Assembly: GCA_903907995.1 (NCBI GenBank)
Contig: CAIVQH010000008.1
Coordinates: forward strand, 7,220 to 71,219
Direction of reading: 5' to 3'
DNA from: an uncultured Verrucomicrobiota bacterium
Lineage (GTDB): Bacteria > Verrucomicrobiota > Verrucomicrobiia > Limisphaerales > UBA9464
DNA length: 64,000 nt
Position numbers and translations under genes: made by a program. This document shows, one piece after another, positions 1,545 through 40,873 of this stretch (within the stretch, counting starts at the first letter, position 1; each line of letters starts with the position of its first letter). The notes below the pieces were generated by a model that worked only from the letters and a program-made list of their open reading frames with translations, was not told the DNA's origin and ran no database searches.

Positions 1545-1803
1545 CGGCAAATGTGGAACGAAGCGAGCATTGCAGGTCGATGGGTTCTTGCAACCACGGG
1601 AGTTGGGGCGGAAACAAGGAGACAGGCGGGACTGCGTCTGGAGTGAGGAGGAGCGGCGAGTGGGGAGCGCGGAACGCGGAGGAAAGTGTCCCCGTTCCGC
1701 TTCGTCCCCGGCCAACCCGCCCCGGTGTCAGAACTTTTGCGGCGACAAGGCCGGTTCGAAGTGCCAGCCAATGCCATTGCCCTATGGGTTTAGCCATGCT
1801 AGC

Positions 1804-2067
1804 ATGCCATTTATGGATCTTCGCATCACCATGGACAAAGCCGGTCGCGTTGTCCTTCCCAAGCCGTTGCGGGATGAACTGCACCTCGTTCCCGGCGACA
1901 CGCTGGAGCTGCAAAGCACCGGCGAACGCATTGTGATGCGCCCGGTCCGGCCCGCGTTGCCCGTCGCCAAGGAAAAGGGGGTGTGGGTGTTCCGCTCCGG
2001 CGAACCGCTGGCCGCCAGTGTCACCGACTCGGTCCTGCGCGACCTCCGCGAACGGCGGGGCGAATGA
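1804..2067 (+). CDS. AbrB/MazE/SpoVT-family antitoxin (VapB-like)
   Basis: MPFMDLRITMDKAGRVVLPKPLRDELHLVPGDTLEL... is a typical SpoVT/AbrB swapped-hairpin N-terminus. The stop overlaps the next start (ATGA at 2064-2067). Alternative start at 1813. Confidence 0.8.
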   Translation: MPFMDLRITMDKAGRVVLPKPLRDELHLVPGDTLELQSTGERIVMRPVRPALPVAKEKGVWVFRSGEPLAASVTDSVLRDLRERRGE

Positions 2068-6198: not shown

Positions 6199-7554
6199 AT
6201 GACCACGCCGCGAACCGCCCCCTCGCCCGCCGCTCCATTCATTGCGACCCGGCGCGCGCTGTCGCGGCGCCGCTTTCTCGTGGGCACCGGCATCGCCCTA
6301 TCCCTGCCGTTTCTCGACGCGATGAATCCGGCCTTCGCCGCCGTGACCAAGGCGGCGGTGGATCAGACGCCCGGCGGCAAGCCGCGCCGGATGTTCGGAA
6401 TCTGCAACAATCTCGGGCTGCTGCCCGAACAGTTCTTCCCCAAGACGGAGGGCCGCGACTACGCGCTGTCACCCTACCTTGAGCTGCTCAAGGAGCACCG
6501 GAACGATTTCACCGTCTTCAGCGGCGTGTCGCATCCCGATGTGGATGGCGGGCATCCGGCCGACAACTGCTTCCTCACGGCCGCGCCGCATCCGGGCAGC
6601 GGTGGCTTCCGCAACACCATCTCGCTCGACCAGTATATCGCCGAGCGCATCGGGCATCTTACCCGCTTCCCGTCGCTCAATCTCGGCGTGAACGTTGATC
6701 GCGGTCAGCGCAGCCTGTCTTGGACCGGTTCGGGCGTCCTGATTCCCTGCGAGGAAAAGGCGTCGGACGTCTTTCGCCGGCTCTTCCTCCAAGGGAGTCC
6801 CCAGGAGACGGAAAATCAGGTCCGCAAACTGGAACTGGGCCAGAGCATCCTCGACGCGGTGGCCGGCCAGGCAAATGCGCTCAAGCGCAGCGTGGGCACG
6901 CATGACCGCGAACGGCTCGACCAGTATTTCACCAGCGTCCGCGAGCTGGAGCAGCGGATGCAGATGTCCCGCGAATGGGAGCGGAAACCCAAACCCACCG
7001 TCACCGTCAGCGTGCCCTTGGACCCCGCGAGCCCCCGCGAATACATGGAAAAGGTCCGCCTGATGTACGATCTCGCGCGGCTCGCCTTTGAGACCGACTC
7101 CACGCGCTCCATCGCGCTGCTGCTCGACAGCGTGAACTCGCCGGTGATCGAGCTGGGCGAGACCAAGCTTTCCGACGCGTACCACAACCTTTCGCACCAC
7201 GGAAAATCCGAGGCCAAGCTCTCCCAGCTGAAGGCCATCGACGAATGGCACATGAAGCTGATCGCCGGCCTCATGTCCGGCCTGCGCGACGTGCGCGAGG
7301 ACGGCGAAACCCTGCTCGACCGCACGATGATCCTCTACGGCTCGAACCTCGGAAACGCGAACACGCACGTGACCACGAACCTGCCGACCTTCTTCGCCGG
7401 CGGCGGTTTCAAACACGGCCAGCACCTCGCCTTTGACCGCGAACGCAACTATCCCCTGCCCAACCTCTTCGTCTCGATGCTGCAACGCATGGGCCTCGAA
7501 ACCGACCGCTTCGCCTCGGCCACCGGCACTATGCGCGGGCTGGAGATGGTGTGA
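6199..7554 (+). CDS. DUF1552 domain protein with twin-arginine signal
   Basis: [25 protein letters not shown] is a TAT-type leader. 451 aa. It is the usual downstream partner of DUF1592 genes. Confidence 0.9.
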
Positions 7555-10238: not shown

Positions 10239-11567
10239 TTACGGCGCATCCACTACGACGCGATAGAAGCCGGTCGGAGGACGAAGGGGACCGGCGAACG
10301 GACTCAGGCCCGTCCACTCGGCAATCCCCTTCTCGGGATAAGTGAGCTGGCCCGCTGCGGGGTTCCATGATTTCAGATCAGCGCTGGTTTCGATGCGGTA
10401 GGTGCGGCTCGGGGCAATCGGGAAGCGGAGCCCCGCGTTCCCATCCGCATCAAAGCGGGAGCTGAGCACCCGCAGGACGCTGGCAGCATTCGTCGGATCG
10501 GTGCCGGCCAGGAATTCTGCGCGGTTGGACTGCCCATCGCCATCCGCGTCGCCGTCGGCGGTGGCGCTCAGATCACCGAACCAGAAGCGCTCCCAATCAT
10601 CGGGCAGGCCATCCTGATCGGTGTCGGCATCCGTGATCACCGTGCCGGTCAGTTCCAGGCGCGGGGAGTCGTAGACCAGATTTTTGCGGGTGGCCCACTG
10701 GGGATAATTGCCAACTCCGCCCCCGCCGGTGCCGCCCGGAGTGATCTGCACGGCGGGTGAAAGTGAATTGACCACCAGCCGTAGCTTGCCCTGGTCGAGG
10801 GCCTGTTGCAGGTAGCCCACGACCAGCGGATCGGTCAGGTCCACGTCGAACGTGAACTTGCTGTCGTCCGGCACGAGTTCGCCGGGCGCGGCATTCGTCG
10901 TCTGCCCGATGGCCCACGGCCTGGCCTCAAAGGGCGCGTTCGTCCACGCGGCGTTCTGCTGGCCGACATTGTTGCTCACGTCCAAGGGCTGTCCGTCGGG
11001 CCCGAACATCACCGGAAAGGCGTTGCGGGTGGCGATGGAGATCGTGTCGCCGGCAACCGGCCCCAGCGGACCATACGAACTGGTCTCGGTATAGGTCGTC
11101 GCCGTGAAACCGCCGCGAAACGCCGCACCGTACAGCTCCACCGGCCGCCCCGCATCGGTGTCAGGCACGTAACCGGGCTGGTTCGTCATGTAGGTGACGT
11201 AGCTGTCGTAGGTCGGGTCGTACACAAAGGCCTGATCCGCCGTGATGGTCAGCGTGAGGAGAACGCGCCGCAGCAGATAGTTCGCCGGATGACGGTTGGT
11301 GGTAACCAGCGTGTCGGTATCCCAGCCGATGAAGAACTGGGCGTCCCGGGTGTCAAAGCGCGGGTCGAAGGACGCGAAGGTGGGCGCCACGGGCCGGGTC
11401 GCCGGCTCGAAGTTGAACGGGTACATCCACCGGTCGAGGGTCGGCGTCGGGACATCCAATGTGAACTCGCCGGCACCCAGCCGGAGCGCCGCCAGCAACC
11501 AGACCAGCGGGAGCAACCAGCGTCCGGGCAGACACAACGCCCGGCGACCAACCAGAGAAAGAGCCAT
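10239..11567 (-). CDS. secreted protein with thrombospondin-type-3-like Asp-rich Ca-binding repeats and the shared [FY][FY]R C-terminal module
   Basis: Signal peptide. DTDQDGLPDDWERFWFGDLSATADGDADGDGQSNRAEFLAGTDPTN. Tail ...RTYRIETSADLKSWNP...GFYRVVVDAP. Confidence 0.75.
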   Translation of the reverse strand: MALSLVGRRALCLPGRWLLPLVWLLAALRLGAGEFTLDVPTPTLDRWMYPFNFEPATRPVAPTFASFDPRFDTRDAQFFIGWDTDTLVTTNRHPANYLLRRVLLTLTITADQAFVYDPTYDSYVTYMTNQPGYVPDTDAGRPVELYGAAFRGGFTATTYTETSSYGPLGPVAGDTISIATRNAFPVMFGPDGQPLDVSNNVGQQNAAWTNAPFEARPWAIGQTTNAAPGELVPDDSKFTFDVDLTDPLVVGYLQQALDQGKLRLVVNSLSPAVQITPGGTGGGGVGNYPQWATRKNLVYDSPRLELTGTVITDADTDQDGLPDDWERFWFGDLSATADGDADGDGQSNRAEFLAGTDPTNAASVLRVLSSRFDADGNAGLRFPIAPSRTYRIETSADLKSWNPAAGQLTYPEKGIAEWTGLSPFAGPLRPPTGFYRVVVDAP

Positions 11568-12638: not shown

Positions 12639-14065
12639 ATGAAGATGCGGTTACCCCTCATACTGTTCGCCGCCTTGTCCCTGCTGTTGGCGGGCACGAG
12701 CGTTGACGCCGAGGGCTTCCAGCCCACCGGGTCCATGAAGCAGGCCCGGCTGTTTCACACCGCAACCCTTCTGAACGACGGCCGCGTGCTGGTCACTGGC
12801 GGCATCGCTCCGACCTTCGACCCGCCCCCCCACCGCAGCCCCCGTTTCAAACCCTGACCAGTGTCGAGCTCTACGATCCGGCAACCGGTACCTGGTCGGA
12901 GGGCGCTCCCTTGGCCGAACCTCGCTGCTGCCATACCGCCACGCTCCTGCCCAATGGTGAGGTGCTGGTCGTCGGCGGAGCTTCGATCGGCGTCTTCCTT
13001 TTTGACTTCGCTCTCTTTGCCGCCGACGGATTGACTTCCGCTGAGATCTACAACCCCACCCGCAATGACTGGCGGGCGGTGGAACCGATGAAGATTGGCC
13101 ATGCCTGGCATTCGGCGACGCTCCTGCCCGACGGCCGGGTGCTGATCGCCGGCGGAGACGATGACTACAGTGAGTTTGACGGTCACCCAGAGTTGTATCC
13201 CTTTGAAGCCGAACTCTTTGATCCCGTGCAGGATTCGTGGAGCCCAGCCGGCCCATTTTGCACTTACACATTTTTCCAGAACCAAACCGGACGGTTTGGC
13301 CATGGTACCCTTCTGTTGCCGGATCACCGGGTGCTCGTGGCTGGGGGACGCGAGCTAGTCCCTAATCCTTGGGGCTCAGTCGGAATCGATTTGGAGAACA
13401 CCGAACTGTTCCGGCCAGGAACCGCCACCTGGAGACCAGCCGCCACGATGGCCACCGCCTGCTTTCGTCCCGTGCTGCACCTTTTGGACGACGGCACGGT
13501 GCTGTTGGCCGACTGGTACCCTTATTTCAGCATTGCTGCACGGTATGACCCGGTGCTGGATCTGTGGACCTCTGCTCCGGCCTCCGCCCAGGTACACGTG
13601 TCAGGGTGTGGAGTAAGGCTGGCTGACGGACGCTTGCTCGTGGCTGGCGGCCTTGTCGGCAGTGAGATCGCCGACGCCAGCAACCCACCGATCGTCTCCT
13701 GCGAGGTCTTCTCCCCGCTGACCCGCCAGTGGAACCCGGCTGGCCCCATGAAGACCGGCCGCGCCAACGGCACCCTCACCCGCCTGCAAGATGGCCGCAT
13801 CCTCGCCACTGGCGGAAGCACCGAACCGACCGCCGAACTGTTCGTGCCCGACCCCAAACCACGGCTCAGTGTCCGTTGGACCGGCGGTCAGCCCGCCCTG
13901 CTGCTGGAGGATACGGCCGCTCAGCCGACCGTGATCGAGTACAAGGAGAGCCTCGACAGCACCGCGTGGTCGGTCATCACCACCTTTCCCCATCCCGACG
14001 CCACCCAGACCGTCTCCGGCCTCCCCGCCGCCGCCCGCTTCTTCCGGGCCCGCCGGACGGATTGA
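12639..14065 (+). pseudogene. Kelch-repeat beta-propeller secreted protein, copy 1, frame broken near a C7 tract
   Basis: The frame starting at ATG 12639 (MKMRLPLILFAALSLLLAGTSVDAEGFQPTGSMKQARLFHTATLLNDGRVLVTGG...) stops at 12855-12857. The rest (VELYDPATGTWSEGAPLAEPRCCHTATLLPNGE... to 14065) is in another frame. It is colinear with intact copy 2. Confidence 0.8.
12825..12831 (+). repeat. C7 homopolymer at the Kelch copy-1 frameshift
   Basis: Reading gac ccg ccc ccc c|ac, one extra C would give ...DPPPPQPPFQTLTSVELYDPATGTW. That rejoins the downstream frame and matches the spacing in copy 2. Confidence 0.75.
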
Positions 14066-14105
14066 TCACTCACCCAGCTGACGACGAACGAAAGCAAGCC
14101 AGCCC

Positions 14106-15533
14106 ATGAAGTTACCACCCCGCCTCCTCCTGTTCGCCGCCGTCTCCCTGCTGCTGGCCGGCCTGCGCCTCGCTGCGGAGGGCTTCCAGCCCACCGGGTC
14201 GATGAAGGCGGCCCGGCTGTTTCACACCGCAACCCTGCTGAACGACGGCCGGGTGCTGGTCACGGGCGGAGCTGATCCGTTGTCACTGAAATTGTTCGGT
14301 GGAGACTATGGATTTTCCTCAATGGCCAGCGCCGAGATTTACGACCCCGCTTCCGGCACCTGGTCGGAGGCCGCCTCCATGACCGAGCCCCGGGGTGGCC
14401 ACACCGCCACGCTCCTGCCCAACGGCGAGGTGCTGGTTGCCGGCGGAGCTTCGCCGGGGCCCTATCTGTCTGAATCCGGTCTTGCGAACTTTTCGTCAGT
14501 GACTTCCGCGGCAATCTACAACCCCGCCCGAAACGACTGGCGCGCCGTGGACCCGGTGAAAATTGCACATGTCTTTCACTCAGCGACGCTCCTGCCCGAC
14601 GGCCGGGTGCTGATCGCCGGCGGGGATTTCGATTATAATGGGTTCTATGGAAAACCAGAGCTGTTTTCCTATGAAACCGAATATTTCGACCCCGCCCGCG
14701 AGGCCTGGAGCCCAGGCGGTCCATTTTCCACCTATACGTTTTTCCCGAACCAAACCGGACGGTTTGGCCATGGTGCGCTCCTGCTGCCCGATCACCGGCT
14801 GCTCGTGGTTGGCGGGCGCGAGGTGGTCCCTCATCCTTGGGGCTCAGTCGCAATCGATTTTGGAAACACCGAACTGTTCCGGCCAGGAACCGGCACGTGG
14901 AAGCCAGCCGCCACAATGGCCACCGCCTGCTTTCGTCCCGTGCTGCACCTTTTGAACGACGGCACCATGCTGCTGGCCGCCTGGTACACTTATTTCAGTA
15001 TCGCTGCACGGTATGACCCGGTACTGGATCGCTGGTCCTCTGCTCCGGCCTCCGCCCAGGTACACGTGTCAGGGTGTGGAGTAAGCCTGGCTGATGGACG
15101 CTTGCTCGTGGCTGGCGGCCTTGTCGGCAGTGAGATCGCCGACGCCAGCAACCCACCGATCGTCTCCTGCGAGATCTTCTCCCCGCTGACCCGCCAGTGG
15201 AACCCGGCTGGCCCCATGAAGACCGGCCGCGCCAACGGCACCCTCACCCGCCTGCAAGATGGCCGCGTCCTCGCCGCCGGCGGGAGCACCGAACCGACGG
15301 CCGAACTCTTCATGCCCGACCCCAAACCACGGCTCAGTGTCCGTTGGACCGGCGATCAGCCCACCCTGCTGCTGGAGGATACGGCCGCTCAGCCGACCGT
15401 GATCGAGTACAAGGAGGACCTTGGCACTGCTGCGTGGTCGGTCATCACCACCTTTCCCCATCCCGACGCCACCCAGACCGTCTCTGGCCTCCCCGCCGCC
15501 GCCCGCTTCTTCCGGGCCCGCCGGACGAATTGA
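14106..15533 (+). CDS. Kelch-repeat beta-propeller secreted protein, copy 2 (intact), with the [FY][FY]R C-terminal module
   Basis: Signal peptide. Repeated ...HTATLLPNGEVLVAGG / HSATLLPDGRVLIAGG / GHGALLLPDHRLLVVGG blades. Tail ...VIEYKEDLGTAAWSV...ARFFRARRTN. Confidence 0.85.
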   Translation: MKLPPRLLLFAAVSLLLAGLRLAAEGFQPTGSMKAARLFHTATLLNDGRVLVTGGADPLSLKLFGGDYGFSSMASAEIYDPASGTWSEAASMTEPRGGHTATLLPNGEVLVAGGASPGPYLSESGLANFSSVTSAAIYNPARNDWRAVDPVKIAHVFHSATLLPDGRVLIAGGDFDYNGFYGKPELFSYETEYFDPAREAWSPGGPFSTYTFFPNQTGRFGHGALLLPDHRLLVVGGREVVPHPWGSVAIDFGNTELFRPGTGTWKPAATMATACFRPVLHLLNDGTMLLAAWYTYFSIAARYDPVLDRWSSAPASAQVHVSGCGVSLADGRLLVAGGLVGSEIADASNPPIVSCEIFSPLTRQWNPAGPMKTGRANGTLTRLQDGRVLAAGGSTEPTAELFMPDPKPRLSVRWTGDQPTLLLEDTAAQPTVIEYKEDLGTAAWSVITTFPHPDATQTVSGLPAAARFFRARRTN

Positions 15534-16021: not shown

Positions 16022-18064
16022 TCATAGCGGTCGAAGGCGGTAGAATCGGGCCGGCGAATTCGTTGATTGCGGGTCGTGAAAGTCGGCGGTGATTGCCGGT
16101 GAGTTCGTCTGGATGGTGATCCACACCGGCAGGCCCAGATCGATGCAGGCTTCGATGACCACCGGCTGGCTGGCCTTCCCGAAAGGGGTGAACCCGAACT
16201 CGTTGGCCCCAGTGCCGAAATCATTGGCGCCGCTGACGGCACCAAGTTCCCGGAGCATGGCCGGCTGATCCCCGAAAGTGGCCTCCCAGCCGGTGGATTC
16301 CGGGAGAAAATAAGCGGTGACCAAAGGAGAGCTGTCGAAAATCCCGTTCCCGATCTCGGGCGCATTCCCCCGGAAATAGACCCCGGTCAGGCCGGGACAC
16401 TGCTCGAACGCTCCATCCGCGATTTCCGTGAGACTCGCGGGCAGCACGATCTCGGAAAGCGCGGAACATCCGCGAAAGGCCCCTTCCCCGATGAGACTCA
16501 AGCCATCGGATACAACGACCCGTCGCAAGCCCGCGCAGCCGGCGAAGGCTGCGCGCCCAATGTTCGTGACGCCTGGCGGAATGGTGATGCGCGGCAGTCG
16601 CACGCAGGAATTGAAGAGGTCATCCGAAATTGAGGTCAGCGACGACGGGAGCGTGACCGAGCGGAGTTGGATGCACTCAAGAAAAGCCGCCTCGCCCAGG
16701 TCGGTGACGCTGTCCGGAAGCGAGACGGCCGTCAGGCGACCGCAACTGGCGAAAGCGTTGGCACCAATGTTCGTGACGCCCGGAGGGAAGGAGATCGTGG
16801 TCAGGCCGTAGCAGTCGCCAAAGGCGAAAGCGCCGACGCTCCCGACCTGCTGGCCCAAGTGTACCGTTCCCAGGTTGGTGCAGGCCCAGAACGCGGCATC
16901 GCCGACCAGCGTGACGCTGTCCGGAATGGTAAGACTGACCAAGCCGATGCAATCGCCGAAGGCGGCCACGCCAATGCTGGTGAGGCCATCTGGGAGCGGC
17001 GCATTGACCAGACTCGAACAGCCGCTAAAGGCTTCATCACCAATGAGGCGTAGCTGGGACGGCGTGCCGAAGGAGACAACCGCCAGCCGGCTGCAGTCCG
17101 CAAACGCGTCTGCTTCAATGGTGGTGAGGCCTCGGGGCAGGTTGACCCGGGCCAAAACAAAGCAGTCGCGAAAGGTCTCCGCGGCAATCGTGGTGATCTT
17201 TTCGGGCACGGTGATCTCGCCCAGATCCGTGCACCGCAAAAATGCCTGCTGGCCAATGCTGAGAAGGCCGTCAGGCAGGTTGATCGAGGCGAGGTTGGAG
17301 CAATCCGCGAAGGCCGCCTCGCCGATGCTGAGCAGGCCGGCGGGCAGCGAAAGCTTCATGAGGCCCGAGCAGTTCTGAAAGAGGGCCGCGGGAATCTCCG
17401 TCACTTTCGGAGGAAGAGTAAACTCGGTCAGGGCGGCACACCCCTCGAATGCATGGTCACCCAAGGTGGTCAGGCCGTTCGGAAGGTCCAGGATCGGAAG
17501 GCTGAAGCAGCCGGAAAATGCCTGAGGCCCGAGGTTGGTCACCCCGGCCGGGATAACGATCTGGGTGAGACTCTCGCAGTCAATGAATGCCGAATCTCCA
17601 ATGCGGGTCAGGGAGTCAGGCAGGATCACCTGGGGCATGTCCACACAGCCCTGAAAGGCCGCATCGCCAATCCCGGTCACCGGCAGGCCATTGAAAGTGG
17701 CAGGAATGATGACAGGAACGTTGGTCGGCGTGACCTGGATCAGAGTGACGGAGAGGGAGTCCTGATTGGTGGCATACGCCAACTGGGCACGACCCGTGAT
17801 TGGGAGAAAAATCAGGGCAGCGAAGAGCCAAAGCCACAAAGCCCTTCCCACGCCAAAGGATGCGCCAAGGTTTGCCGCGCTTCGAGTAAGGTGGGTTGGG
17901 ATCATCTGGTGTATCGGTTGGAGGTTTCGGCGGTCACGCACAACGCAAGCTCCCGCCGTGGAAACCGCATCAGGTGACAGTCCATCAAGCATTGTGGCAC
18001 AGCCGGCCGACGACAATGAAAATGGCCGGTGAGCCAGGGGTTTCACGGGCCGCGGCTTCGGCAT
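16022..18064 (-). CDS. BspA-type leucine-rich repeat surface protein
   Basis: About 20 repeats of the form L.SIGD.AF..C..L..I.LP. Tail ...ARFYRLRPL. The likely true start is the ATG at 17905 (MIPTHLTRSAANLGASFGVGRALWLWLFAALIFLPITGRAQ, signal peptide). Confidence 0.85.
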   Translation of the reverse strand: MPKPRPVKPLAHRPFSLSSAGCATMLDGLSPDAVSTAGACVVRDRRNLQPIHQMIPTHLTRSAANLGASFGVGRALWLWLFAALIFLPITGRAQLAYATNQDSLSVTLIQVTPTNVPVIIPATFNGLPVTGIGDAAFQGCVDMPQVILPDSLTRIGDSAFIDCESLTQIVIPAGVTNLGPQAFSGCFSLPILDLPNGLTTLGDHAFEGCAALTEFTLPPKVTEIPAALFQNCSGLMKLSLPAGLLSIGEAAFADCSNLASINLPDGLLSIGQQAFLRCTDLGEITVPEKITTIAAETFRDCFVLARVNLPRGLTTIEADAFADCSRLAVVSFGTPSQLRLIGDEAFSGCSSLVNAPLPDGLTSIGVAAFGDCIGLVSLTIPDSVTLVGDAAFWACTNLGTVHLGQQVGSVGAFAFGDCYGLTTISFPPGVTNIGANAFASCGRLTAVSLPDSVTDLGEAAFLECIQLRSVTLPSSLTSISDDLFNSCVRLPRITIPPGVTNIGRAAFAGCAGLRRVVVSDGLSLIGEGAFRGCSALSEIVLPASLTEIADGAFEQCPGLTGVYFRGNAPEIGNGIFDSSPLVTAYFLPESTGWEATFGDQPAMLRELGAVSGANDFGTGANEFGFTPFGKASQPVVIEACIDLGLPVWITIQTNSPAITADFHDPQSTNSPARFYRLRPL

Positions 18065-18110: not shown

Positions 18111-19055
18111 ATGATCCCCATGAAATCACCCATCCCCATCGCTTTATCAGGCAAGTCGCCCGCCCGCCGTACGCTGCTGGTTTTGAGCTTCATCGCCCTT
18201 TCCTCGGTCTTCTCCGCCCAGGCTGCGCTCGACATGTTCATCAACTTCGGGTCGACCATCAAAGGCGAGTCACGCGACAAGGTCCAAGGCCCGAAGGGGG
18301 ATTGCGACATGCTGTCTTGGAATTGGGGCATGAGCCAGTCGGGCACGACCCATACCGGCGGAGGGGGCGGAGCCGGAAAGGCAAACTTCCAGGATATCAC
18401 CCTGACGAAATACGTGGACACCGCCAGCACGGACCTCATGACCGCGCTGGCCAAGGGTTCACACTTGGCGAAGGTGGTGTTGCTGACCCGTAAGGCGGGT
18501 GAAGGGCAGACGAAATACATCGAGATCACGCTGGAGGAAGTCATCGTGACGTCGCTGACGACCGGTGGCTCCGGCGGCCAGGACCGCCTCACCGAGCAGG
18601 TCAGCCTCAATTTCGCCAAGGTGAAGTACGACTACTACCCCGTGGATTCAAAGGGGACCGTCGGAACAGCCAAAACCTTTGCCTGGAACATTGCCGCGAA
18701 CACCATGGCGGCAAAGCCGGTGGAAGTGCAGGGAGAACCGGGTGCCGCAGCGACCGAGTCGGTCTTGCCGGCGAGCGACGCTTCCCTCCGGAATTTTGTG
18801 CATGCGGGCGCCGCTGACCAGCTGAAGGCCCACGAGGAGGTCCGCGCTGGCAAGCGCTTCCTCGCCGTCGAGGTCACCCGTCCGAAGAACACCACGGGCG
18901 TCGCCATCACCGCCCAGACCTCTGCCGACGCCCACACCTGGTCCTCGGATACGGTCGTCGAAGAGGTCGCCGAGGACGGCACCGACACCCAGACCACCCG
19001 CTACGTGATCCCCATCGACCAGGCCCAGAAATTCTTCCGCACCACGACCGAATAA
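18111..19055 (+). CDS. Hcp1-family (T6SS tube fold) domain protein with N-terminal signal peptide and C-terminal extension
   Basis: Residues 39-200 read ALDMFINFGSTIKGESRDK...DMLSWNWGMSQSGTTHTGGGGGAGKANFQDITLTKYVDTASTDLM...RKAGEGQTKYIEITLEEVIVTSLTTGGSGGQDRLTEQVSLNFAKVKYDY. This closely parallels P. aeruginosa Hcp1 as I remember it. It is preceded by KSPARRTLLVLSFIALSSVFSAQA and followed by about 115 aa ending ...HTWSS...QKFFRTTTE. Confidence 0.85.
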   Translation: MIPMKSPIPIALSGKSPARRTLLVLSFIALSSVFSAQAALDMFINFGSTIKGESRDKVQGPKGDCDMLSWNWGMSQSGTTHTGGGGGAGKANFQDITLTKYVDTASTDLMTALAKGSHLAKVVLLTRKAGEGQTKYIEITLEEVIVTSLTTGGSGGQDRLTEQVSLNFAKVKYDYYPVDSKGTVGTAKTFAWNIAANTMAAKPVEVQGEPGAAATESVLPASDASLRNFVHAGAADQLKAHEEVRAGKRFLAVEVTRPKNTTGVAITAQTSADAHTWSSDTVVEEVAEDGTDTQTTRYVIPIDQAQKFFRTTTE

Positions 19056-19076: not shown

Positions 19077-19112
19077 GGGCCGTCCTGTTCAAAGGGGCGG
19101 CCCTTTTCTTTT
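19077..19112 (+). terminator. rho-independent terminator after the Hcp-like gene
   Basis: gggccgtcct (19077-19086), loop gttcaaa, ggggcggccc (19094-19103; two G-U pairs), then ttttctttt. Confidence 0.7.
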
Positions 19113-19942: not shown

Positions 19943-20887
19943 ATGAAGACACCATCATGCCTGTTGCTGCTGCTCGGTGCCATGACATGCACCCCCGGTC
20001 TCGCCGGACAGTTCGGAAGCTTCATTTATTCCGAGAGCGGTGGCAAAATCACCATTACCGGTCTGGTCAATTTTGGCACCGGTGCCACCGGGACCATTCC
20101 AGGCTCCATCAACGGCAAGCCGGTAACCGCTATCGGCGAGAGCGCCTTGGGCGGCTCGGTCTTTGAATCGGTCACCATCCCTAACAGCGTGACCACCATC
20201 GGGTATGGAGCGTTCAACGTTTCCTTTTACCTCAGTAGCCTCAATTTGGGTACGGGCGTGACCCGGATTGATGACAACGCATTTTATCTGTGCTCAAGAC
20301 TGCAGAATTTGACTCTCCCCAGCAGTCTCACAAGCGTGGGAAATTTTGCCTTCGCCAGCTGCGCTTTGAAACACGTCACGATTCCCGCCAAGCTAACCCA
20401 CATCGGAAACCTGCCGTTTGCCTACTGCAATCTGCTGACTTCCTTGTCCGTGGACCCGCTGAACCCGGTCTTCAGCGGCGACGGCATCTCCTGCTTCGAC
20501 AAGGCTAAAACCACCCTTGTCCTTTGTCCCAGCGGCTATGACGGCACGTATGTGGTTCCCGGGACGGTCACCATCATCGGAGCCAACGCGTTCGCCGGCA
20601 ACACGGTGCTGGACGATGTGGTCATCACTCCCAAAGTGACCCAGATTCAGGACGGCGCCTTTTTCTACTGCCAGCATCTAATGGGCATCCACGTGGACGC
20701 GAAGAATTCCATGTACTCCACGGTGGACGGGGTCTGTTTCGACAAGGGCGAGACAACCCTCGTCGCCTACCCGAACGGCAGGACCGGAAACTACGTCGTG
20801 CCCGACACCGTGACCATGATTGGCAACCAGGCATTTGCTGGTGCCAATCTGCTAAGGACCATTCAGCTTCCCGCACCCTCATCCTGA
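19943..20887 (+). CDS. BspA-type leucine-rich repeat protein (short paralog, probably C-terminally truncated)
   Basis: Signal peptide, LRR units (VTTIGYGAF, LTSVGNFAFASC, VTIIGANAFAG, VTMIGNQAFAG). Visibly lower GC. It starts 13 nt after the VTC gene. Confidence 0.8.
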   Translation: MKTPSCLLLLLGAMTCTPGLAGQFGSFIYSESGGKITITGLVNFGTGATGTIPGSINGKPVTAIGESALGGSVFESVTIPNSVTTIGYGAFNVSFYLSSLNLGTGVTRIDDNAFYLCSRLQNLTLPSSLTSVGNFAFASCALKHVTIPAKLTHIGNLPFAYCNLLTSLSVDPLNPVFSGDGISCFDKAKTTLVLCPSGYDGTYVVPGTVTIIGANAFAGNTVLDDVVITPKVTQIQDGAFFYCQHLMGIHVDAKNSMYSTVDGVCFDKGETTLVAYPNGRTGNYVVPDTVTMIGNQAFAGANLLRTIQLPAPSS

Positions 20888-26552: not shown

Positions 26553-29500
26553 TCAGGGTGCCACGATGGCCCGGTAGAAACGCGGGGTGTTGTCGGTGGA
26601 GTTGGGGTCCGTAACCGTGAAGGTTCCCAGCTCGTTCAGAACGGTGCTGATCGGCGACCAACCCTTGAGGTTGCTGGAATACTGGATGACGTAAGACTGG
26701 TTGACTTGGCCTTGCACTTGAATCTTCGCGTTCCCACCCGTGAAGCCAAGGAACTTGACGACGGCTTTGGAGGTATCATCCGTCGGCGGGCGCAGGTGCA
26801 GCTGGACATTGTCCAGCCAGGCGGTGTCCTGGCCGCTGGAGCGGCCGGCATCCTTCACATAACGCCATTCAAAGTCGTTTGAACCTGCCGGTATGGCAAA
26901 GGTAAACGTGCTCCAATCGACCTCACCGGACCAGCGCTGAACCAGCGACCCGTTAAGATAGAACTCCAGATAGTCCCAGCCATTCTCCGAGCTGACCTTG
27001 TATTGGAACGCGCCCTGGCCGCCCAGAGAATCGCCCTGCAAGCTGAGTGAGCTGACCTGGCTGTCGCCGATCGTGCCGGCCTTGGCGGCAAAGGTGCCGC
27101 TTGCAACCGTGTTGCTTTGCACCGCCCAAGGAACGTCACCACCGGAAACCCACTTCACATGCGTAAGATCGCCGGTTTCGAAATCATCCGTGAAGGGGAT
27201 GGCGACGAAATTGGCCGTGAGAGTCATGTTGCTGCTGACCAGGAAGCTGAGCGGATTGTCAGTGCTGGTCACCGAACCGCTCCATCCGCCAAAACTGAAG
27301 TAGGTGTTGGCCGTCGCGGTAAGATTCACTGGCGCATTGCTGGCAAACAGTCCGCCAGCGGAACTCACCGTGCCACCTACGCCGGCATTGACGGTGAGCG
27401 TGAACAGCGTCGCCGGCGCGAACGAATACGTCAGCGACACTTGGCCAACGGCACCAGCGAACCCATCCACCGCGATGTGGACGGTCTGGCCGCTCTTGAT
27501 TGGCACGCTGGCCACGCTGAAGGAGGAACTCGGGTAGGCATCGTCATTTGATGCGAGCGTGGTCAGGCTGCTCACCTTGGACCCGCTGTACACACCCAAC
27601 AGGGTATCAATCACCGAATTGGTCGTGCTGAGGGTCAGAACCCCGTCGGAGGTCGCGGTGTAGTTCCACCAGATTGAATGCCCGCCCAGGCTGCCACCAT
27701 GCAGCGGTTCGCCGAATTCACGGCTGGCCTGGGTATTGTCACCGGTGACGGTACCTCCGGCCCCTGAAAGCGGCGTCGCATTCACAAACTGGTCATTGAC
27801 CGCCGAAGGCAGACGCAGCGAAATCGTCAGGCTTGCAGGCGAAGACACATTCTCCGCATTGTCCTGCGCCACCGCCGTCACCGTGTTCAGCCCTGGTGAC
27901 AACGAAATCGTTGCGGACCAGGTGTTGCCCGCCAGTGTCGCACTCGAGCCGTTCACCAACACCTGCCGGACACCGGTCGGGTACGGATCAGGATCGCTGA
28001 CAATCCCACTGACAGTGATGACATTTGAGCTCGCGATGAAGCCATTGGCCGGAGCAGTAAAGGAAATCTGCGGGGCAACGACATCGGGGATGCCGTTGGG
28101 CGTCAGGCGCAGCAGGGCCTGTCCTTTTCCGGAAGTCCCCACGCCGATGACGGCAATGCGATAGGTTGTTCCCTTCGTGGCGTTGAAAGTCAGCGAAGTG
28201 CTTGATTTCGGCAGGACCGGCACGGCACTGCTGACGAGGTTCAAATTGAGGAAACTGGTGCCGGTATATACCGCAAGGGCTACGGGCGTCGCCGTGCCAA
28301 AGGTGTCCAGCAGTACCGGCGAGGAGACATTCGGCGTCCAGGCAAACCAGAGCGAGCCGACACCGTCGGGCGCTCCGGAGACTACTGGCTCGCCCGGTTC
28401 AAACGTGCTCAGGGTGGTGTCCGTACTGTCCACGCCGGCGATCAGTTCCCCATCGGTGGCGATCTTCCGCGGTGCGGCAAACCGGTCGTTGGCAGGACGA
28501 GCGACCACGGTGTAATTGACCACGTTGGTTGCGCCGGTTTTCCCCGGTGCGGTCGCGCTGATGACAAACTGATAGCTGCCGACATCCTGCGGGTTGAAGT
28601 TGGCGCTGTAGGTGCCGTCCAAGGCGACGGCATCGGGCATGACACCGTCGTTCGTGAATGACAGCGATACATTGGTCAGCCAGGGTCCGTTGATGATCGC
28701 CGTGACCGTCGCATTCGTCAGCGGGAAGAGATCGGTCACCGTGACGAATATCGGCGTCGTGTTGGTGACCAACACCTTCGAACCGTCCGGGGGAGCCACC
28801 ACCAAGGGATCGATGATGTTATCAATGTCACCATTGACTGCCCGGAAGGCGTTGACCCGGCCGCCGGTGATGGTTTGCCCCTTCAGGGCTGCAGTTGTTA
28901 CTGCGGAATTCAGCAGTCGCAGCCGGAGCTCGGGCATGCTGGCCGTCGGATGCTTGGCGAGCACAAGCGCGGCCACACCCGTCACATGGGGACAGGCCAT
29001 GCTGGTTCCCTCGAAGACATCGTAGGCGGTGTCCGATGTGCTGATTGAGGAAAAGATTTCAACGCCCGGAGCCCCTAGATGGACCGTCCTCAGGCCGTAG
29101 TTTGAAAAACTCGCCAGATGGTCTTTCCGGTCGATGGCGGCGACGACAACCATGTTGTCGAGCGCATAGCTGGCGGGCGCCACGAAGGTGATCCCGTTGT
29201 CATCACCAACCCCGTCGGCCCCGCCATTTCCTGCCGCGGCGACGAAAAGATGCCCCGAATCACGGGCGAAGGCGAGCGCGTCGGCAAGGGCCGGATCCGC
29301 GCCGCTTCCGCCCCAACTGTTGTTCGAAATGGGGACCTTCATGCGCACCGCATATTGGATGCACTCGATCGCATCCGAGGTGAATCCGGAGCCGTCCGAT
29401 CCGAGAAACTTCAGCCCCATCAGCGAAACCTGCCACGACACACCGACATGAGGCTGTCCATTGTTGGCCACCGCCCCGATCGTGCCGGACACATGGGTGC

Positions 29501-30224
29501 CGTGCTCGCCATCGTCAAACGGGTCACCAGAGCCGGTGATGGAGTTGATGCCGTGAACGTCATCCACATAGCCGTTGCCGTCATCGTCAATGCCGTTCCC
29601 CGGAATTTCACCGGGATTGGTCCAGATGTTGTCCGCCAGATCCACATGCGTATAGCGGATGCCCGTATCGATCACGGCCACGACGACCGACTTTGAACCG
29701 GTCGTGAGGTCCCAGGCACGCTCTGCATCGATATCGGCACCGGCGGTCCCGCCCTGCTGCCCGGTGTTCCTCAGTCCCCACAGCGTTCCATCCGTGAAGC
29801 GCAGGTCGTTGGGGGTCAGCTGCGCCGTAAGGACGTAGTCCGGCTCGACGTAGGCAAACTGTCCGGAATCGCGGAGAACCTGCATGCGGGCCTCCAGCAT
29901 TTGCGCACGCGTCTCCGGCGTCACGATGGAGGCCAGACCGAAGGCGTCCTTGGGCTCATCCAGCACCAAGAGTCCGGGCACAAATGACAGGTCTTTACGG
30001 ACCTCCAGACCGGCAGCAGAGGCCAGCGCCTTGGCGGCCGGCCTGGTGCTGAGAGCCTGGACGGCCGAAGCGGACGCATCCTGCAGCCTCACAATGATGC
30101 GCGTGGCATGTGCCTTGCGGCCGCCAATCTCGATGATGTTAGCCCCTTCCTGTGCCTGGAGGAGGCCACACAGAAGAAGACTGCCGGCGGCAAAGGCCCA
30201 AAGTCGCTTGCAAAGCATAATCAA
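26553..30224 (-). CDS. S8 (subtilisin) family serine protease, 1223 aa, multi-domain, with the [FY][FY]R C-terminal module
   Basis: Signal peptide and an I9-like propeptide. Catalytic triad motifs VAVIDTGI, HGTHVSGTIGA and GTSMACPHVTG. A long Ig-like/beta-sandwich region follows. Tail ...SYVIQYSSNLKGWSP...PRFYRAIVAP. Confidence 0.9.
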   Translation of the reverse strand: MIMLCKRLWAFAAGSLLLCGLLQAQEGANIIEIGGRKAHATRIIVRLQDASASAVQALSTRPAAKALASAAGLEVRKDLSFVPGLLVLDEPKDAFGLASIVTPETRAQMLEARMQVLRDSGQFAYVEPDYVLTAQLTPNDLRFTDGTLWGLRNTGQQGGTAGADIDAERAWDLTTGSKSVVVAVIDTGIRYTHVDLADNIWTNPGEIPGNGIDDDGNGYVDDVHGINSITGSGDPFDDGEHGTHVSGTIGAVANNGQPHVGVSWQVSLMGLKFLGSDGSGFTSDAIECIQYAVRMKVPISNNSWGGSGADPALADALAFARDSGHLFVAAAGNGGADGVGDDNGITFVAPASYALDNMVVVAAIDRKDHLASFSNYGLRTVHLGAPGVEIFSSISTSDTAYDVFEGTSMACPHVTGVAALVLAKHPTASMPELRLRLLNSAVTTAALKGQTITGGRVNAFRAVNGDIDNIIDPLVVAPPDGSKVLVTNTTPIFVTVTDLFPLTNATVTAIINGPWLTNVSLSFTNDGVMPDAVALDGTYSANFNPQDVGSYQFVISATAPGKTGATNVVNYTVVARPANDRFAAPRKIATDGELIAGVDSTDTTLSTFEPGEPVVSGAPDGVGSLWFAWTPNVSSPVLLDTFGTATPVALAVYTGTSFLNLNLVSSAVPVLPKSSTSLTFNATKGTTYRIAVIGVGTSGKGQALLRLTPNGIPDVVAPQISFTAPANGFIASSNVITVSGIVSDPDPYPTGVRQVLVNGSSATLAGNTWSATISLSPGLNTVTAVAQDNAENVSSPASLTISLRLPSAVNDQFVNATPLSGAGGTVTGDNTQASREFGEPLHGGSLGGHSIWWNYTATSDGVLTLSTTNSVIDTLLGVYSGSKVSSLTTLASNDDAYPSSSFSVASVPIKSGQTVHIAVDGFAGAVGQVSLTYSFAPATLFTLTVNAGVGGTVSSAGGLFASNAPVNLTATANTYFSFGGWSGSVTSTDNPLSFLVSSNMTLTANFVAIPFTDDFETGDLTHVKWVSGGDVPWAVQSNTVASGTFAAKAGTIGDSQVSSLSLQGDSLGGQGAFQYKVSSENGWDYLEFYLNGSLVQRWSGEVDWSTFTFAIPAGSNDFEWRYVKDAGRSSGQDTAWLDNVQLHLRPPTDDTSKAVVKFLGFTGGNAKIQVQGQVNQSYVIQYSSNLKGWSPISTVLNELGTFTVTDPNSTDNTPRFYRAIVAP

Positions 30225-30246
30225 ATGGCGTCTGAAAAGATGAACC

Positions 30247-33156
30247 TCAGGGTTCGTAGGTCACGCGGTAATAGACCACCGGCTGGTCGGGATTCACTGG
30301 ATCGCTGGCAACCAGCGGGGCGGAGTCGGTGGAAGTGTTGCTCACCGTGGTCACCAGCACCCAAGTTGTGGGATTGAGCGAGCTGGTCTTTTCCACGCGA
30401 TAACTCGTCTGCGGGGCACCGGTCCAACTGATCTGGGTCGTGAGCGGCGGCACATTCACCACCGCAGTGGTGATCGGCACCCCACCGAACGGTTCCGGAT
30501 CAAACGCATTCGCGATGCCGTCGCTGTCCGAATCAATGACAGTGCTGTTGAAGACGTTGCGGTTCACCCGCACCGTTCTTCCATCGGCCAGGGCCACATC
30601 GATGCCGCTGAACGGTCCGGCAAAATTCCGGACCCATTTCAGATGGCCGTTGAGGGCGCCATCCAGCTGTTCGACCGGGATGTTCGAATCCGCAAAGTAG
30701 ATCGTGAAGTCGTCCGCGATCTGTATGAAGGAACTCATGTCCGCCGCAATCGGCGAGCTGAATTCAAGGAAGTCCACATACAGCGCTTTCCCGCCGTTGA
30801 TGCCGGCAATGTTGATCAGGCCGTTGATGTCGGAAATCAGGCTCAGCCGGCCGATCGCGGCATTGTTGGCGAAGCCTTCTTTGGTCGCTCCGAGATCCGC
30901 CGCCGGCCAAAGAATGTCGGCGGAACCATCCGTAGTCACACTGGCCTCAAAGGTGGTTCCCAACATGGTGGCGGTCGTGGGTTTGCTGCCCAGGGTGAAG
31001 CCTTGGACGCTCGCGATGCGGTTCGGGGCCCCCGCACCGGCATCGAGGAACGAATTGGCAATCTGCAACTGGATGCTGCGACCGGCGGTCAGGGTTGCTC
31101 CCTGCATCTTCAGATCAGAGGCCGTCAGATAAAGGTCGCCAAACGCAGTGATCTTGCTTCCGGTGCCGTCGAGCTGCACCGAGGTGGCGACAATGTCAAT
31201 CGGCCCGTTAAAGGTCTGGATTGTCCCTGCGTTGTAGAGGGTGGTCGCACCGATCGACATGGACAGCGACTCATTGGTGCCGGTGTTCACGAACGTATCA
31301 TACGGCGCCCGGTCCCGGCCAAAATTGGCCACTCCCTGAACCGCGAGGATGCCGTTGTTGGTCAGCCGGCGCAGTTCCGGAGCCGAGGCCGCATTCCAGA
31401 CCCCGCTGCCGATGTTGCCCACAAACAGTGTGCCATTGATTGTCAGGGAATCCGAATGAAGCTCGATCGTGCTGTCAATCAGCAGCTTGTCGGCAACCGT
31501 CGTGTTTGTCGCCACCGCCTTGAGTCCGCTCACCGACGTGACACCGTCATCGCTGCTGAGATCGGCGCTCACGAGCAGGACGTGATACATGGTCGTGAAG
31601 TTGGTGGTGACAACGTCCGTGTTGGTGGCTCCGGTGTTGGGATCCACGGTGTTGTTTGTCGTCAGCTGGTCGAACCCGTTCGTCCAGATTGCACTCCAGG
31701 CTTTGATGTCTCCGGAGGCGAAACGGATGATGGGCGCTCCTGCCAGGCCCTGGAGGATCAGATTGCCGTTGGTCGCTCCCAAATCGTAGAAGAGGTTGGG
31801 CACATCAACCACCAGGTTGGCGGAGCCGGTAAGGTTTTTGGTCTTGATGAAGGCCGCCCCGCCTGCACGTATCCGCGTGTTGTTCAGGTTCAGATTGTCG
31901 GCATTGATCTCCACCCGGCCGGCGTAATTCGTGAGGGCCACGTTGGCGCCATTCCCGGGAAGCTGAAGATTTGAGTTAACAAACGCCTCATAGGCAGAGA
32001 AAAACGGGGTTACCGTCGCATTGCTGAAGTTCATCCCGTTCGTGAACTGGGGCGACACGAACTGGGTAAATATGTTGCTCGAAATCAACGAATTTCCGGG
32101 GGCGCCACTCAAGCCGAAGCGCTCAATCCGGAAATTGGCCGGACGGAACGTGCCCAGCGTCAGCGAATTTGTGAGCAGGAAGAGATTGGTGTCGGCCGCA
32201 ACCAGCAGATTCGTGGCGGAGGCGAGTCGGTCAGTGAGAAAAATGGATCTCGATACGCGCTGCCGGGTGATCACGTTTGTATCAAACCCGCTGAACTTCG
32301 TGATGAAGGTATGAAACGGGTTGCCCTGTTCGGAACTGCGCCCGAAACTGACATCCACCGACACATTGGTCCTCGTGTTGGCCACAAAGACCACCTCGAT
32401 GATCTGGTTCGTAGGCCCCTTTGGATCCCCGAAGGAGTTTGTGTTCACGAACACCAGAGGAGCCGTCAGTGACATGCCGTCCGGAAACTGGCCAGGATCG
32501 ACGATATAGTCCGGCGTGGTCACCTGGACGCCGTTCGGCGCGTACTTGAAAAACTGGGTCGGATCCAGCGTGACGATGTTCGTGCCCCAGCTGATGTCGG
32601 TGACTGACTGCATCGGGGTGAAGTTTGTCCGGGTTTGGCTTCCGCCGCTCGCGTTCAGCCCATCGGAGAGTGTCCCCATGTCCAGCTTGCTGTTGGCCAG
32701 GTCAACATTCTGGCCGTTCAGCCGGATCAGGCCTTCAAGTGAGCCCACCAAATTGCCGCGGTTGACCAGGTTGGTGGCGCTGAGGGAAAGGAACGGCTCC
32801 CCGTCAATGAGGGCTCCCTGCAGGTTGTTGATCACGCTGGCAAAGCCCCGCGTGCCGGTCGTGCCATCGGTGTGATCCAGACGAAACCCGCCCAATGAGA
32901 AATAATTACCGGCACCGTCCGAGAACCCAAATGCCCCCATTGTGCCCGTATTGGTGAAATACAGGGTGTTTTGGGTGTCATAGGGCCGGCTTAGCCCATT
33001 GAAATTCATCGTGCCGCGGTTCAGGAACACACGGGCGTCAACCTGTACCGGGTCGCTTATCGAATCATCGTTGACGTACAGGTCCGCCGTCCCCCCAAAA
33101 CAGGCAAGCCCCGCCGCGAGCCAGCCGAATACTGCAAAAATGAGCCGTGTCTTCAT
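30247..33156 (-). CDS. large secreted beta-helix-like (adhesin-like) repeat protein, 969 aa, with the [FY][FY]R C-terminal module
   Basis: Signal peptide MKTRLIFAVFGWLAAGLACFGG. Irregular Asn/Gly/Thr-rich repeats (LNLNNTRIRAGGAAFIKTKNLTGSANLVV...). Tail ...TSYRVEKTSSLNPTTW...VVYYRVTYEP. Confidence 0.7.
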   Translation of the reverse strand: MKTRLIFAVFGWLAAGLACFGGTADLYVNDDSISDPVQVDARVFLNRGTMNFNGLSRPYDTQNTLYFTNTGTMGAFGFSDGAGNYFSLGGFRLDHTDGTTGTRGFASVINNLQGALIDGEPFLSLSATNLVNRGNLVGSLEGLIRLNGQNVDLANSKLDMGTLSDGLNASGGSQTRTNFTPMQSVTDISWGTNIVTLDPTQFFKYAPNGVQVTTPDYIVDPGQFPDGMSLTAPLVFVNTNSFGDPKGPTNQIIEVVFVANTRTNVSVDVSFGRSSEQGNPFHTFITKFSGFDTNVITRQRVSRSIFLTDRLASATNLLVAADTNLFLLTNSLTLGTFRPANFRIERFGLSGAPGNSLISSNIFTQFVSPQFTNGMNFSNATVTPFFSAYEAFVNSNLQLPGNGANVALTNYAGRVEINADNLNLNNTRIRAGGAAFIKTKNLTGSANLVVDVPNLFYDLGATNGNLILQGLAGAPIIRFASGDIKAWSAIWTNGFDQLTTNNTVDPNTGATNTDVVTTNFTTMYHVLLVSADLSSDDGVTSVSGLKAVATNTTVADKLLIDSTIELHSDSLTINGTLFVGNIGSGVWNAASAPELRRLTNNGILAVQGVANFGRDRAPYDTFVNTGTNESLSMSIGATTLYNAGTIQTFNGPIDIVATSVQLDGTGSKITAFGDLYLTASDLKMQGATLTAGRSIQLQIANSFLDAGAGAPNRIASVQGFTLGSKPTTATMLGTTFEASVTTDGSADILWPAADLGATKEGFANNAAIGRLSLISDINGLINIAGINGGKALYVDFLEFSSPIAADMSSFIQIADDFTIYFADSNIPVEQLDGALNGHLKWVRNFAGPFSGIDVALADGRTVRVNRNVFNSTVIDSDSDGIANAFDPEPFGGVPITTAVVNVPPLTTQISWTGAPQTSYRVEKTSSLNPTTWVLVTTVSNTSTDSAPLVASDPVNPDQPVVYYRVTYEP

Positions 33157-33179
33157 GAAATTTTTGGGCGTGGCCAGGA

Positions 33180-34631: not shown

Positions 34632-34639
34632 AATCAGAT

Positions 34640-36145: not shown

Positions 36146-36264
36146 AACGGTTGTCTACCCACAGTTTTCACGACCCCATTCAACTGGCATACCTAGGCCT
36201 CGAAGCCCGCGAAATCCAATCGAATGTGGAACTTTCTCTATCGCCGGTTCCTTAAAACCGTCAC

Positions 36265-39018
<2,754 letters not shown>

Positions 39019-39066
39019 GGGGTTCTTCTCGGTTGGAACTCGAAATCTAGGCGATGCGTAGGCGAT

Positions 39067-39867: not shown

Positions 39868-39870
39868 GCG

Positions 39871-40872: not shown

Positions 40873-40873
40873 A

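Follow-up and report, generated by a model that had tools for sequence, protein, structure and literature searches.

A signal-peptide-bearing Hcp1-family protein unlinked to type VI secretion genes in an uncultured verrucomicrobial genome

INTRODUCTION

Proteins of the Hcp1 (TssD) family are the tube proteins of type VI secretion systems (T6SS), and having no signal peptide counts as a textbook hallmark of Hcp. To our knowledge, the Hcp fold has been known only from contractile injection machines that are assembled in the cytoplasm. Here, we analyze a gene of an uncultured Verrucomicrobiota bacterium (Limisphaerales; UBA9464) whose product joins an Hcp1-family domain to a Sec-type leader. The gene lies in a stretch of 64,000 nucleotides (64 kb; assembly GCA_903907995.1, contig CAIVQH010000008.1, positions 7,220 to 71,219), the whole of which is called the window below, and its product is referred to as the window Hcp. 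The reading that we favor, and consider reasonably probable, is that it is a Sec-exported, T6SS-independent Hcp1-family ring protein of the envelope or surface.

Several described systems resemble the window Hcp in part. With Pseudomonas aeruginosa Hcp1/TssD (PA0085, PDB 1y12) it shares the fold, the glycine-rich loops, most of the invariant residues, and the predicted type of mature N terminus. Unlike Hcp1, it has a predicted cleavable Sec-type leader in place of the initiator methionine, a 115-residue C-terminal extension, a valine in place of Gln139, and no T6SS genes nearby. The Hcp-ET proteins of Enterobacteriaceae likewise combine an N-terminal Hcp domain with a C-terminal extension; Ma and colleagues are said to have described them in 2017 as T6SS-dependent proteins that have no signal peptide and carry toxin domains with adjacent immunity genes. 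In contrast, the window Hcp has a signal peptide and neither a recognizable toxin domain nor an adjacent immunity gene. The tail tube protein gpV of phage lambda is assembled in the cytoplasm, has no signal peptide, and bears a C-terminal immunoglobulin-like domain. It resembles the window Hcp in having a tube-forming fold related to Hcp together with a C-terminal decoration domain expected outside the ring, but gpV is a phage virion protein, the window Hcp has a signal peptide, and no sequence relationship between the two was detected. Full-text searches of the literature turned up no account of Hcps with signal peptides, and Zhang et al. (2012) mention only Hcp1-toxin fusions.

RESULTS

The initial annotation of this DNA had described a plus-strand open reading frame (ORF) of 314 residues with an Hcp1 domain, and this ORF is indeed present. 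Its product has three parts, a 38-residue Sec-type leader, the Hcp1 domain, and a linker followed by a C-terminal domain of about 92 residues (Table 1). An in-frame ATG at 18120 is an alternative start that would give 311 residues, the form of database entry P0001. The minus-strand ORFs that overlap the gene are frame shadows typical of high-GC DNA. Because six orthologues of 311 to 316 residues occur in independent assemblies from the Joint Genome Institute (JGI), ENA, NCBI, and Logan, we regard the signal-peptide Hcp architecture as real. The gene also has its own terminator, as had been claimed; the terminator scan located a stem at 19077-19103 (10 bp with 8 G-C pairs) followed by a T run, TTTTCTTTTC.

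The identity of the Hcp domain is clear. Pfam family PF05638 (T6SS_HCP) matches residues 44 to 175 with 116.4 bits against a cut-off of 23.5 (E = 1.3e-33), and phmmer aligns residues 38 to 199 end to end with P. aeruginosa Hcp1 (E = 1e-48), while the NCBIfam Hcp1 model TIGR03344 aligns with residues 72 to 180 at 40.6 bits, below its cut-off of 58.9. In an AlphaFold model built from 53 sequences, the predicted local distance difference test score (pLDDT) exceeds 90 across most of the domain, and Foldseek superimposes the model on 1y12 with a template modeling (TM) score of 0.92, a root mean square deviation of 2.0 Å, and 49 to 52% identity, which places it in the Hcp beta-barrel fold. Fifty-two columns are at least 95% conserved in leaderless Hcp1 proteins, and about 39 of them remain at least 90% conserved in the forms with a Sec-type leader. 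Since nearly all of the residues conserved in T6SS tube proteins are kept in the window Hcp domain, a hexameric ring is most likely still formed. A single column behaves differently, that of Gln139 (Hcp1 numbering), which is present in 113 of 113 leaderless proteins versus 34 of 83 Sec forms and is replaced in the window Hcp by Val178 (18642-18644). Judging from this conservation pattern, the column may mark a T6SS-specific contact.

The leader consists of residues M-I-P-M-K-S-P-I-P-I-A-L-S-G-K-S-P-A-R-R, T-L-L-V-L-S-F-I-A-L-S-S-V-F, and S-A-Q-A and is followed directly by A-L-D-M-F. It has the basic n-region, hydrophobic core, and AxA site that had been noted previously: K15, R19, and R20 make up the charged part, T21 to F34 (14 residues) the core, with a mean Kyte-Doolittle value of 2.7 over its best 10 residues, and A36-Q37-A38 the c-region with small residues at positions -3 and -1, as expected of Sec substrates cut by signal peptidase I. 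The AlphaFold model shows a helix at residues 17 to 34. The leader is kept in all six orthologues. In comparison with the orthologue at locus L001 (84% identical), the ratio of nonsynonymous to synonymous substitution rates (dN/dS) is 0.23 for leader residues 17 to 38, 0.20 for the Hcp domain, and 0.16 for the C-terminal domain, and the linker has the highest dN among the gene segments compared (0.247; dN/dS 0.30). Because its value is close to the one for the Hcp domain, the leader must be translated and under purifying selection. This bears out the earlier preference for an upstream start over the internal ATG at 18234. The position of the canonical initiator methionine is occupied by Ala38, and a start at 18234 would remove the A-L-D of strand 1, so that the protein departs from the T6SS tube proteins, which begin with M-A-x-D-M-F and have no signal peptide. 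Neither the leader nor any other part of residues 1 to 60 contains a cysteine; there is thus no lipobox, and the window Hcp is not a lipoprotein. Pfam and NCBIfam scans of the window Hcp gave no match to a twin-arginine translocation (Tat) signal model at E <= 1, and the conserved S/T-R-R-x-F-L-K motif of Tat substrates is missing, with RR in the window Hcp, HR in orthologue P0003, and no RR in P0006. Export of the window Hcp via Sec is a well-supported prediction from the leader.

To assess linkage to T6SS genes, nine Pfam-verified core proteins of one Pseudomonas locus (TssA, TssB, TssC, TssF, TssG, TssK, TssL, ClpV, and Fha) were compared by tblastn with every locus and with the window, and genes within 10 kb were counted as neighbors. 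As the initial annotation had stated, no T6SS genes are found in the 64 kb: none of the nine proteins matched at E <= 1e-3, and no T6SS part appeared when the long minus-strand cluster and the tested ORFs of at least 600 residues were scanned with Pfam. These scans identified a subtilase, a secretin/PilM system, PSD/PSCyt proteins, a POR enzyme, and a helicase. The minus-strand cluster at 26553-42739, whose gene sizes fit TssM, ClpV, and TssC, had been a candidate T6SS and was rejected on its Pfam content of subtilase, secretin, and PilM. Among leaderless Hcp loci of species-representative genomes, 76 of 78 have T6SS core genes within 10 kb, including six from Verrucomicrobiota and Planctomycetota (Limisphaerales, Chthoniobacteraceae, Puniceicoccaceae, Planctomycetales, and Pirellulaceae); the metagenomic leaderless P0007 locus has none, which brings the leaderless total to 76 of 79. 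In contrast, no T6SS core gene lies near a Sec-type Hcp in any of 13 distinct contexts, two of which are contigs judged from precomputed Pfam assignments only (Fisher p = 2.5e-13 versus leaderless). The examined contigs of window Hcp orthologues are also free of T6SS core genes. For the window and the contigs searched, the predicted independence of the window Hcp from T6SS is well supported.

The window Hcp does not stand alone. Of its 120 best homologues, 115 could be classified, and 79 of these carry a Sec-type leader, a share that is biased, as the query itself has a leader. The leaders have a modal length of 25 residues and directly precede A-[VLI]-D-M-F, with A or G at position -1 in 75 of 79, A at +1 in 74 of 79, and mostly A, L, T, V, S, or I at -3; the other 36 homologues are leaderless and have methionine at -1 in 31 cases. 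Signal-peptide Hcps are hence a wider, so far undescribed class, the scope of which had been underestimated when a search for further examples was first suggested. Within this class, the usual arrangement is an operon in which a short Sec-Hcp (176 to 209 residues) is followed 29 to 70 bp downstream by a long one (247 to 315 residues). Such operons were seen in L004/5, L006/7, L018, L044, L091, L092, L095, L096, L097, and the P0018 contig, and the pair also occurs in Pontiellaceae bacterium B12219 of the Kiritimatiellota (P0046 and P0116); the operons at the L loci are surrounded by unrelated housekeeping genes. The long partner ends in a domain of about 75 residues, "...LTW..G..YQVW..DL..F....TSVTVPADAIRKFFRIE", sometimes behind TSP3 repeats. 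This FN3-like cassette ("...FFRIE") is also found on other large secreted proteins, and a metagenome scan with a narrower alignment of the C-terminal domain returned four loci only. In L093 (401-592) and L094 (3053-3220), a C-terminal domain of the long-partner type ends secreted proteins other than Hcp, including one of 1,076 residues, and in both it is preceded by a TSP3-like Asp-rich linker. One further homologue, P0037, carries two Hcp domains behind a single leader, and this tandem fusion is a hint that the short and long partners co-assemble.

The short and long operons, which belong to bacteria of the Planctomycetes-Verrucomicrobia-Chlamydiae (PVC) group, share with the window gene a leader fused exactly at the start of the Hcp domain, no T6SS linkage, and PVC hosts, and their long partners also share a C-terminal domain ending in ...FFR. 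Unlike the genes of these operons, the window gene is solitary, the 64 kb containing no short partner, and its product has a different and rarer C-terminal domain and an Hcp domain nearer to the T6SS Hcps of Oxalobacteraceae than to theirs.

The extension of about 115 residues reported for the window Hcp (residues 201 to 314) is real and conserved. An exhaustive HMMER search with these residues against 1.84 billion representatives returned only six proteins, among which P0245, P0246, P0248, and P0250 are genuine; a word-indexed search using only the tail gave no hit. Three of the four (P0245, P0246, and P0248) are full length and combine a signal peptide, a strongly diverged Hcp-like domain, and a window-type tail, whereas P0250 is a tail-only fragment. 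The tail is thus specific to signal-peptide Hcp proteins. Within this family, the tails are 35 to 62% identical versus 22 to 34% for the Hcp domains, the exceptions being the window clade and P0006, in which a canonical Hcp domain is kept. A model of the C-terminal domain alone (pLDDT 83) has two beta-hairpins, a terminal helix, and an uncertain central helix. No significant fold match was found for the domain in PDB or BFVD, and no sequence relative in Pfam, NCBIfam, or PDB; a HemeBinding_Shp match (E = 0.0012 to 0.016) fell below the cut-off and was disregarded. No relatives were found in viral contigs.

The tail carries the terminal motif [ST]x[DN]xxxW...[FY][FY]R, whose [FY][FY]R falls within the last 12 residues. 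This motif is common to at least eight signal-peptide proteins of the window, and 10 of the 563 ORFs in the window end in [FY][FY]R compared with 1.6 expected. The initial annotation had taken the Hcp to end in the same W...FFR tail as its exported neighbors, which holds for the terminal motif; homology is supported by profile methods only for the last 20 or so residues. A profile of the pair-type C-terminal domains matched ORF 34640-36145 (E = 4e-7) and, in the Hcp tail, only the last ~20 residues (E = 0.02 to 0.13; hhalign probability 46%), and iterative profile building did not join the Kelch, leucine-rich repeat (LRR), and Hcp tails into one family. Two of the motif bearers are tandem Kelch-repeat paralogues, 12911-14065(+) and 14106-15533(+), whose C-terminal halves are nearly identical. 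Lacking both an ATG and a signal peptide, and with its longest ORF beginning at TTG, the upstream copy looks like a 5'-truncated duplicate.

In the window clade, the Hcp domain is 75 to 77% identical to T6SS-linked Hcps of Massilia and Burkholderiaceae, compared with 51 to 60% to the T6SS-linked Hcps of Verrucomicrobiota and at most 63% to other Sec forms. A neighbor-joining tree of 197 Hcp domains nests the window clade among Oxalobacteraceae with weak support (42 to 74%) and interleaves Sec and leaderless forms, which mean identities do not separate either; the resolution of this tree is too poor to tell a single gain of the leader from multiple gains, or from replacement of the Hcp domain by horizontal transfer.

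Upstream, the window Hcp gene is divergent from a gene for an LRR surface protein, which we confirm, although the start of the LRR gene is probably at 17905 and not at 18064. An LRR_5 gene is also divergent from that of P0246 (loci L098/L099; LRR gene at 33-1835(-) of L098), and the two LRR proteins are 37% identical over 603 residues (E = 1e-129). The Hcp domains of the window protein and P0246 are only 34% identical and their other neighbors differ, yet the LRR gene is kept. This recurrence provides modest evidence that the LRR_5 protein and the signal-peptide Hcp may be functionally paired. L001 is syntenic with the window, while P0006 and P0245 lie in other contexts. A second LRR_5 gene at 19943-20887(+) encodes 314 residues without the tail; its L001 orthologue has 468 residues and ends in ...GRLYRVRFP, and the window copy is therefore apparently 3' truncated. 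The gene after the Hcp, beyond the terminator, encodes a VTC-domain protein. The AccD of the window is 79 to 82% identical to proteins of Verrucomicrobiae, Verrucomicrobiota, and Limisphaerales metagenome-assembled genomes (MAGs). Elsewhere in the window, a Planctomycete-type PSCyt/PSD multidomain protein (DUF1592/1588/1585/1587/1595; 3369-6020(+)) is paired with a DUF1552 protein (6199-7554(+)), a pairing typical of PVC genomes.

Table 1. Positions in the window of the Hcp gene, its parts, and associated features
Feature	Position	Strand	Basis or remark
Signal-peptide Hcp with C-terminal domain, complete gene	18111..19055	+	ORF list and sequence; 314 residues
Sec-type signal peptide, residues 1-38, predicted signal peptidase I site AQA-AL (cut after A38)	18111..18224	+	n-, h-, and c-regions read from sequence
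Hcp1-family (TssD) domain, residues 39-200	18225..18710	+	Pfam PF05638, PDB 1y12, Foldseek
Pro/Ala/Glu-rich linker, residues 201-222	18711..18776	+	pLDDT < 50 at residues 207-219
C-terminal domain, residues 223-314, last residues QKFFRTTTE	18777..19052	+	HMMER, dN/dS, model
Intrinsic-terminator-like hairpin and T run	19077..19112	+	Terminator scan
LRR_5 (BspA-like) secreted protein, divergent, ends ARFYRLRPL	16022..17905	-	72% identical to L001 neighbor
Terminal-motif bearers besides Hcp: two Kelch proteins, LRR protein, subtilase, ORFs 30247-33156 and 34640-36145, TSP3 protein	10239-11567(-), 12911-15533(+), 16022-17905(-), 26553-36145(-)		

DISCUSSION

In addition to the T6SS tube proteins, the Hcp1 family appears to include members that are made for export. 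Our results lead us to propose that the window Hcp would leave the cytoplasm through the Sec pathway and would not enter a type VI sheath. Cleavage by signal peptidase I would fall after AQA38 and leave a mature N terminus, A-L-D-M-F, of the same type as that of a normal Hcp after removal of methionine. In the periplasm or at the cell surface, the Hcp domain would then most likely assemble into a hexameric ring, which the linker and C-terminal domain may decorate or anchor, possibly together with the neighboring LRR surface protein. Such a ring would act without any T6SS, as an envelope or surface scaffold or as a binding module. The initial annotation had suggested that the Hcp fold was recruited as a Sec-exported protein, and this suggestion gains support from the constrained leader, the fit to the -3/-1 rule in 75 of 79 relatives, and the absence of T6SS genes nearby.

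Other explanations have to be weighed against this proposal. The gene might encode an ordinary leaderless T6SS tube protein that starts at the internal ATG 18234, with the upstream leader left untranslated and a T6SS elsewhere in the genome secreting the protein. Orphan hcp genes far from T6SS clusters are indeed common (P0007, L065, and L089), and some Verrucomicrobiota have a T6SS, but alanine takes the canonical methionine position in the window Hcp as in all 79 Sec forms, six orthologues preserve the open frame of the leader under the constraint described above, and no Shine-Dalgarno-like sequence precedes 18234; this start is already largely refuted and, in our view, highly improbable. 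Equally hard to credit is that the window Hcp is an "evolved" effector whose C-terminal extension is a T6SS-delivered toxin as in the Hcp-ET proteins of Enterobacteriaceae. The layout of an Hcp domain plus an extension of about 115 residues is the same, yet the protein has a signal peptide, residues 201 to 314 match no toxin family or fold, the tail bears the terminal motif of local secreted proteins, and the downstream position is held not by a small immunity-like gene but by the VTC-domain protein after the terminator. Somewhat less remote, though still quite unlikely, is that the leader acts as an uncleaved signal anchor that tethers the Hcp to the inner membrane, or that its RR pair sends the folded protein out through Tat. 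At 38 residues the leader is long, A-R-R-T-L-L-V resembles a twin-arginine motif, and a folded protein could in principle be exported by Tat. Against this, the RR pair is not conserved, being HR in P0003 and absent from P0006 and most other Sec-type Hcps, the h-region is strongly hydrophobic and matched no Tat model, and the near-universal AxA right before the Hcp start favors cleavage.

An exported Hcp might also serve immunity. An attacker-type Hcp ring in the periplasm could act as a decoy or sponge that recaptures Hcp-borne effectors of T6SS-armed neighbors, and effectors are reportedly bound in the pore of Hcp1 rings, as Silverman and colleagues are said to have found in 2013. T6SS-linked Hcps of soil Oxalobacteraceae, and not those of Verrucomicrobiota, stand closest to the Hcp domain, the Massilia-like leaderless P0007 and orthologue P0003 share a JGI sample series, export would place the Hcp where cell wall effectors act, and the interleaving of Sec and leaderless forms in the tree is what repeated capture predicts. 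However, the tree has bootstrap values of only 42 to 74%, and the divergent P0245, P0246, and P0248 are without the canonical Hcp motifs. A structural role would better explain both the pairing of short and long forms in an operon and the surface-type C-terminal cassettes, and no PADLOC match was obtained from a library of anti-phage systems only. We therefore consider a decoy role unlikely, and less likely than the appendage discussed below.

Our proposal of a Sec-exported, T6SS-independent ring protein also has to accommodate observations that count against it. In a scan of species-representative genomes, the best 80 loci include just two of the Sec type, namely L018 in a Verrucomicrobiota MAG and L044 in a MAG labeled Akkermansia; proteobacterial leaderless Hcps dominate that scan, and no orthologue of the window protein is among its best 80 loci. 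Other Verrucomicrobiota carry a T6SS (L025, L060, and L071), and our search for T6SS genes covered the window and contigs. The high identity to Massilia T6SS Hcps would be expected if T6SS-type constraints still applied. Cleavage of the leader is argued from sequence rules and conservation alone, and the model of the C-terminal domain was built from 10 sequences and disagrees with the full-length model on the central helix.

If the wider class is considered, a bolder and rather doubtful reading presents itself. The Sec-exported Hcps, that is, the short and long pairs, P0037, and the window form, might build a T6SS-independent extracytoplasmic ring or tube in PVC bacteria, which would be a new envelope or surface appendage made from a phage-tail tube fold by way of the general secretory pathway, with the C-terminal domains as anchors and LRR proteins maybe as partners. 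The [FY][FY]R-motif module, for which neither Pfam nor NCBIfam has a model, may in turn be a PVC sorting or anchoring domain. Like the C-terminal domain of type IX secretion system (T9SS) substrates and PEP-CTERM, it is a short conserved C-terminal module on unrelated signal-peptide proteins of one genome; unlike these, it has no sequence match to either and shows no PEP-CTERM-type transmembrane helix or basic tail, and we infer a sorting role purely by analogy. In the window, a TPR-secretin (36265-39018(-)) and PilM (40874-42739(-)) adjoin several large secreted proteins and an S8 subtilase encoded downstream (26553-36145(-)), and the tail bearers that flank this secretin/PilM cluster are the subtilase and ORFs 30247-33156 and 34640-36145. 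The cluster could be the export route of tail-bearing proteins.

These findings bear on genome annotation as well as on cell envelope biology. JGI and NCBI name the Sec-type genes "type VI secretion system tube protein Hcp," and automatic labels of this kind can raise the number of metagenomic taxa that are counted as T6SS positive. The Sec-Hcp class, by virtue of its shared C-terminal modules, offers a testable way into the sorting of surface proteins in PVC bacteria, and it would represent a ring that assembles itself and is by nature suited to export. If our proposal is true, Verrucomicrobiota and Kiritimatiellota have a second use for the ring/tube fold, in their periplasm or on their surface.

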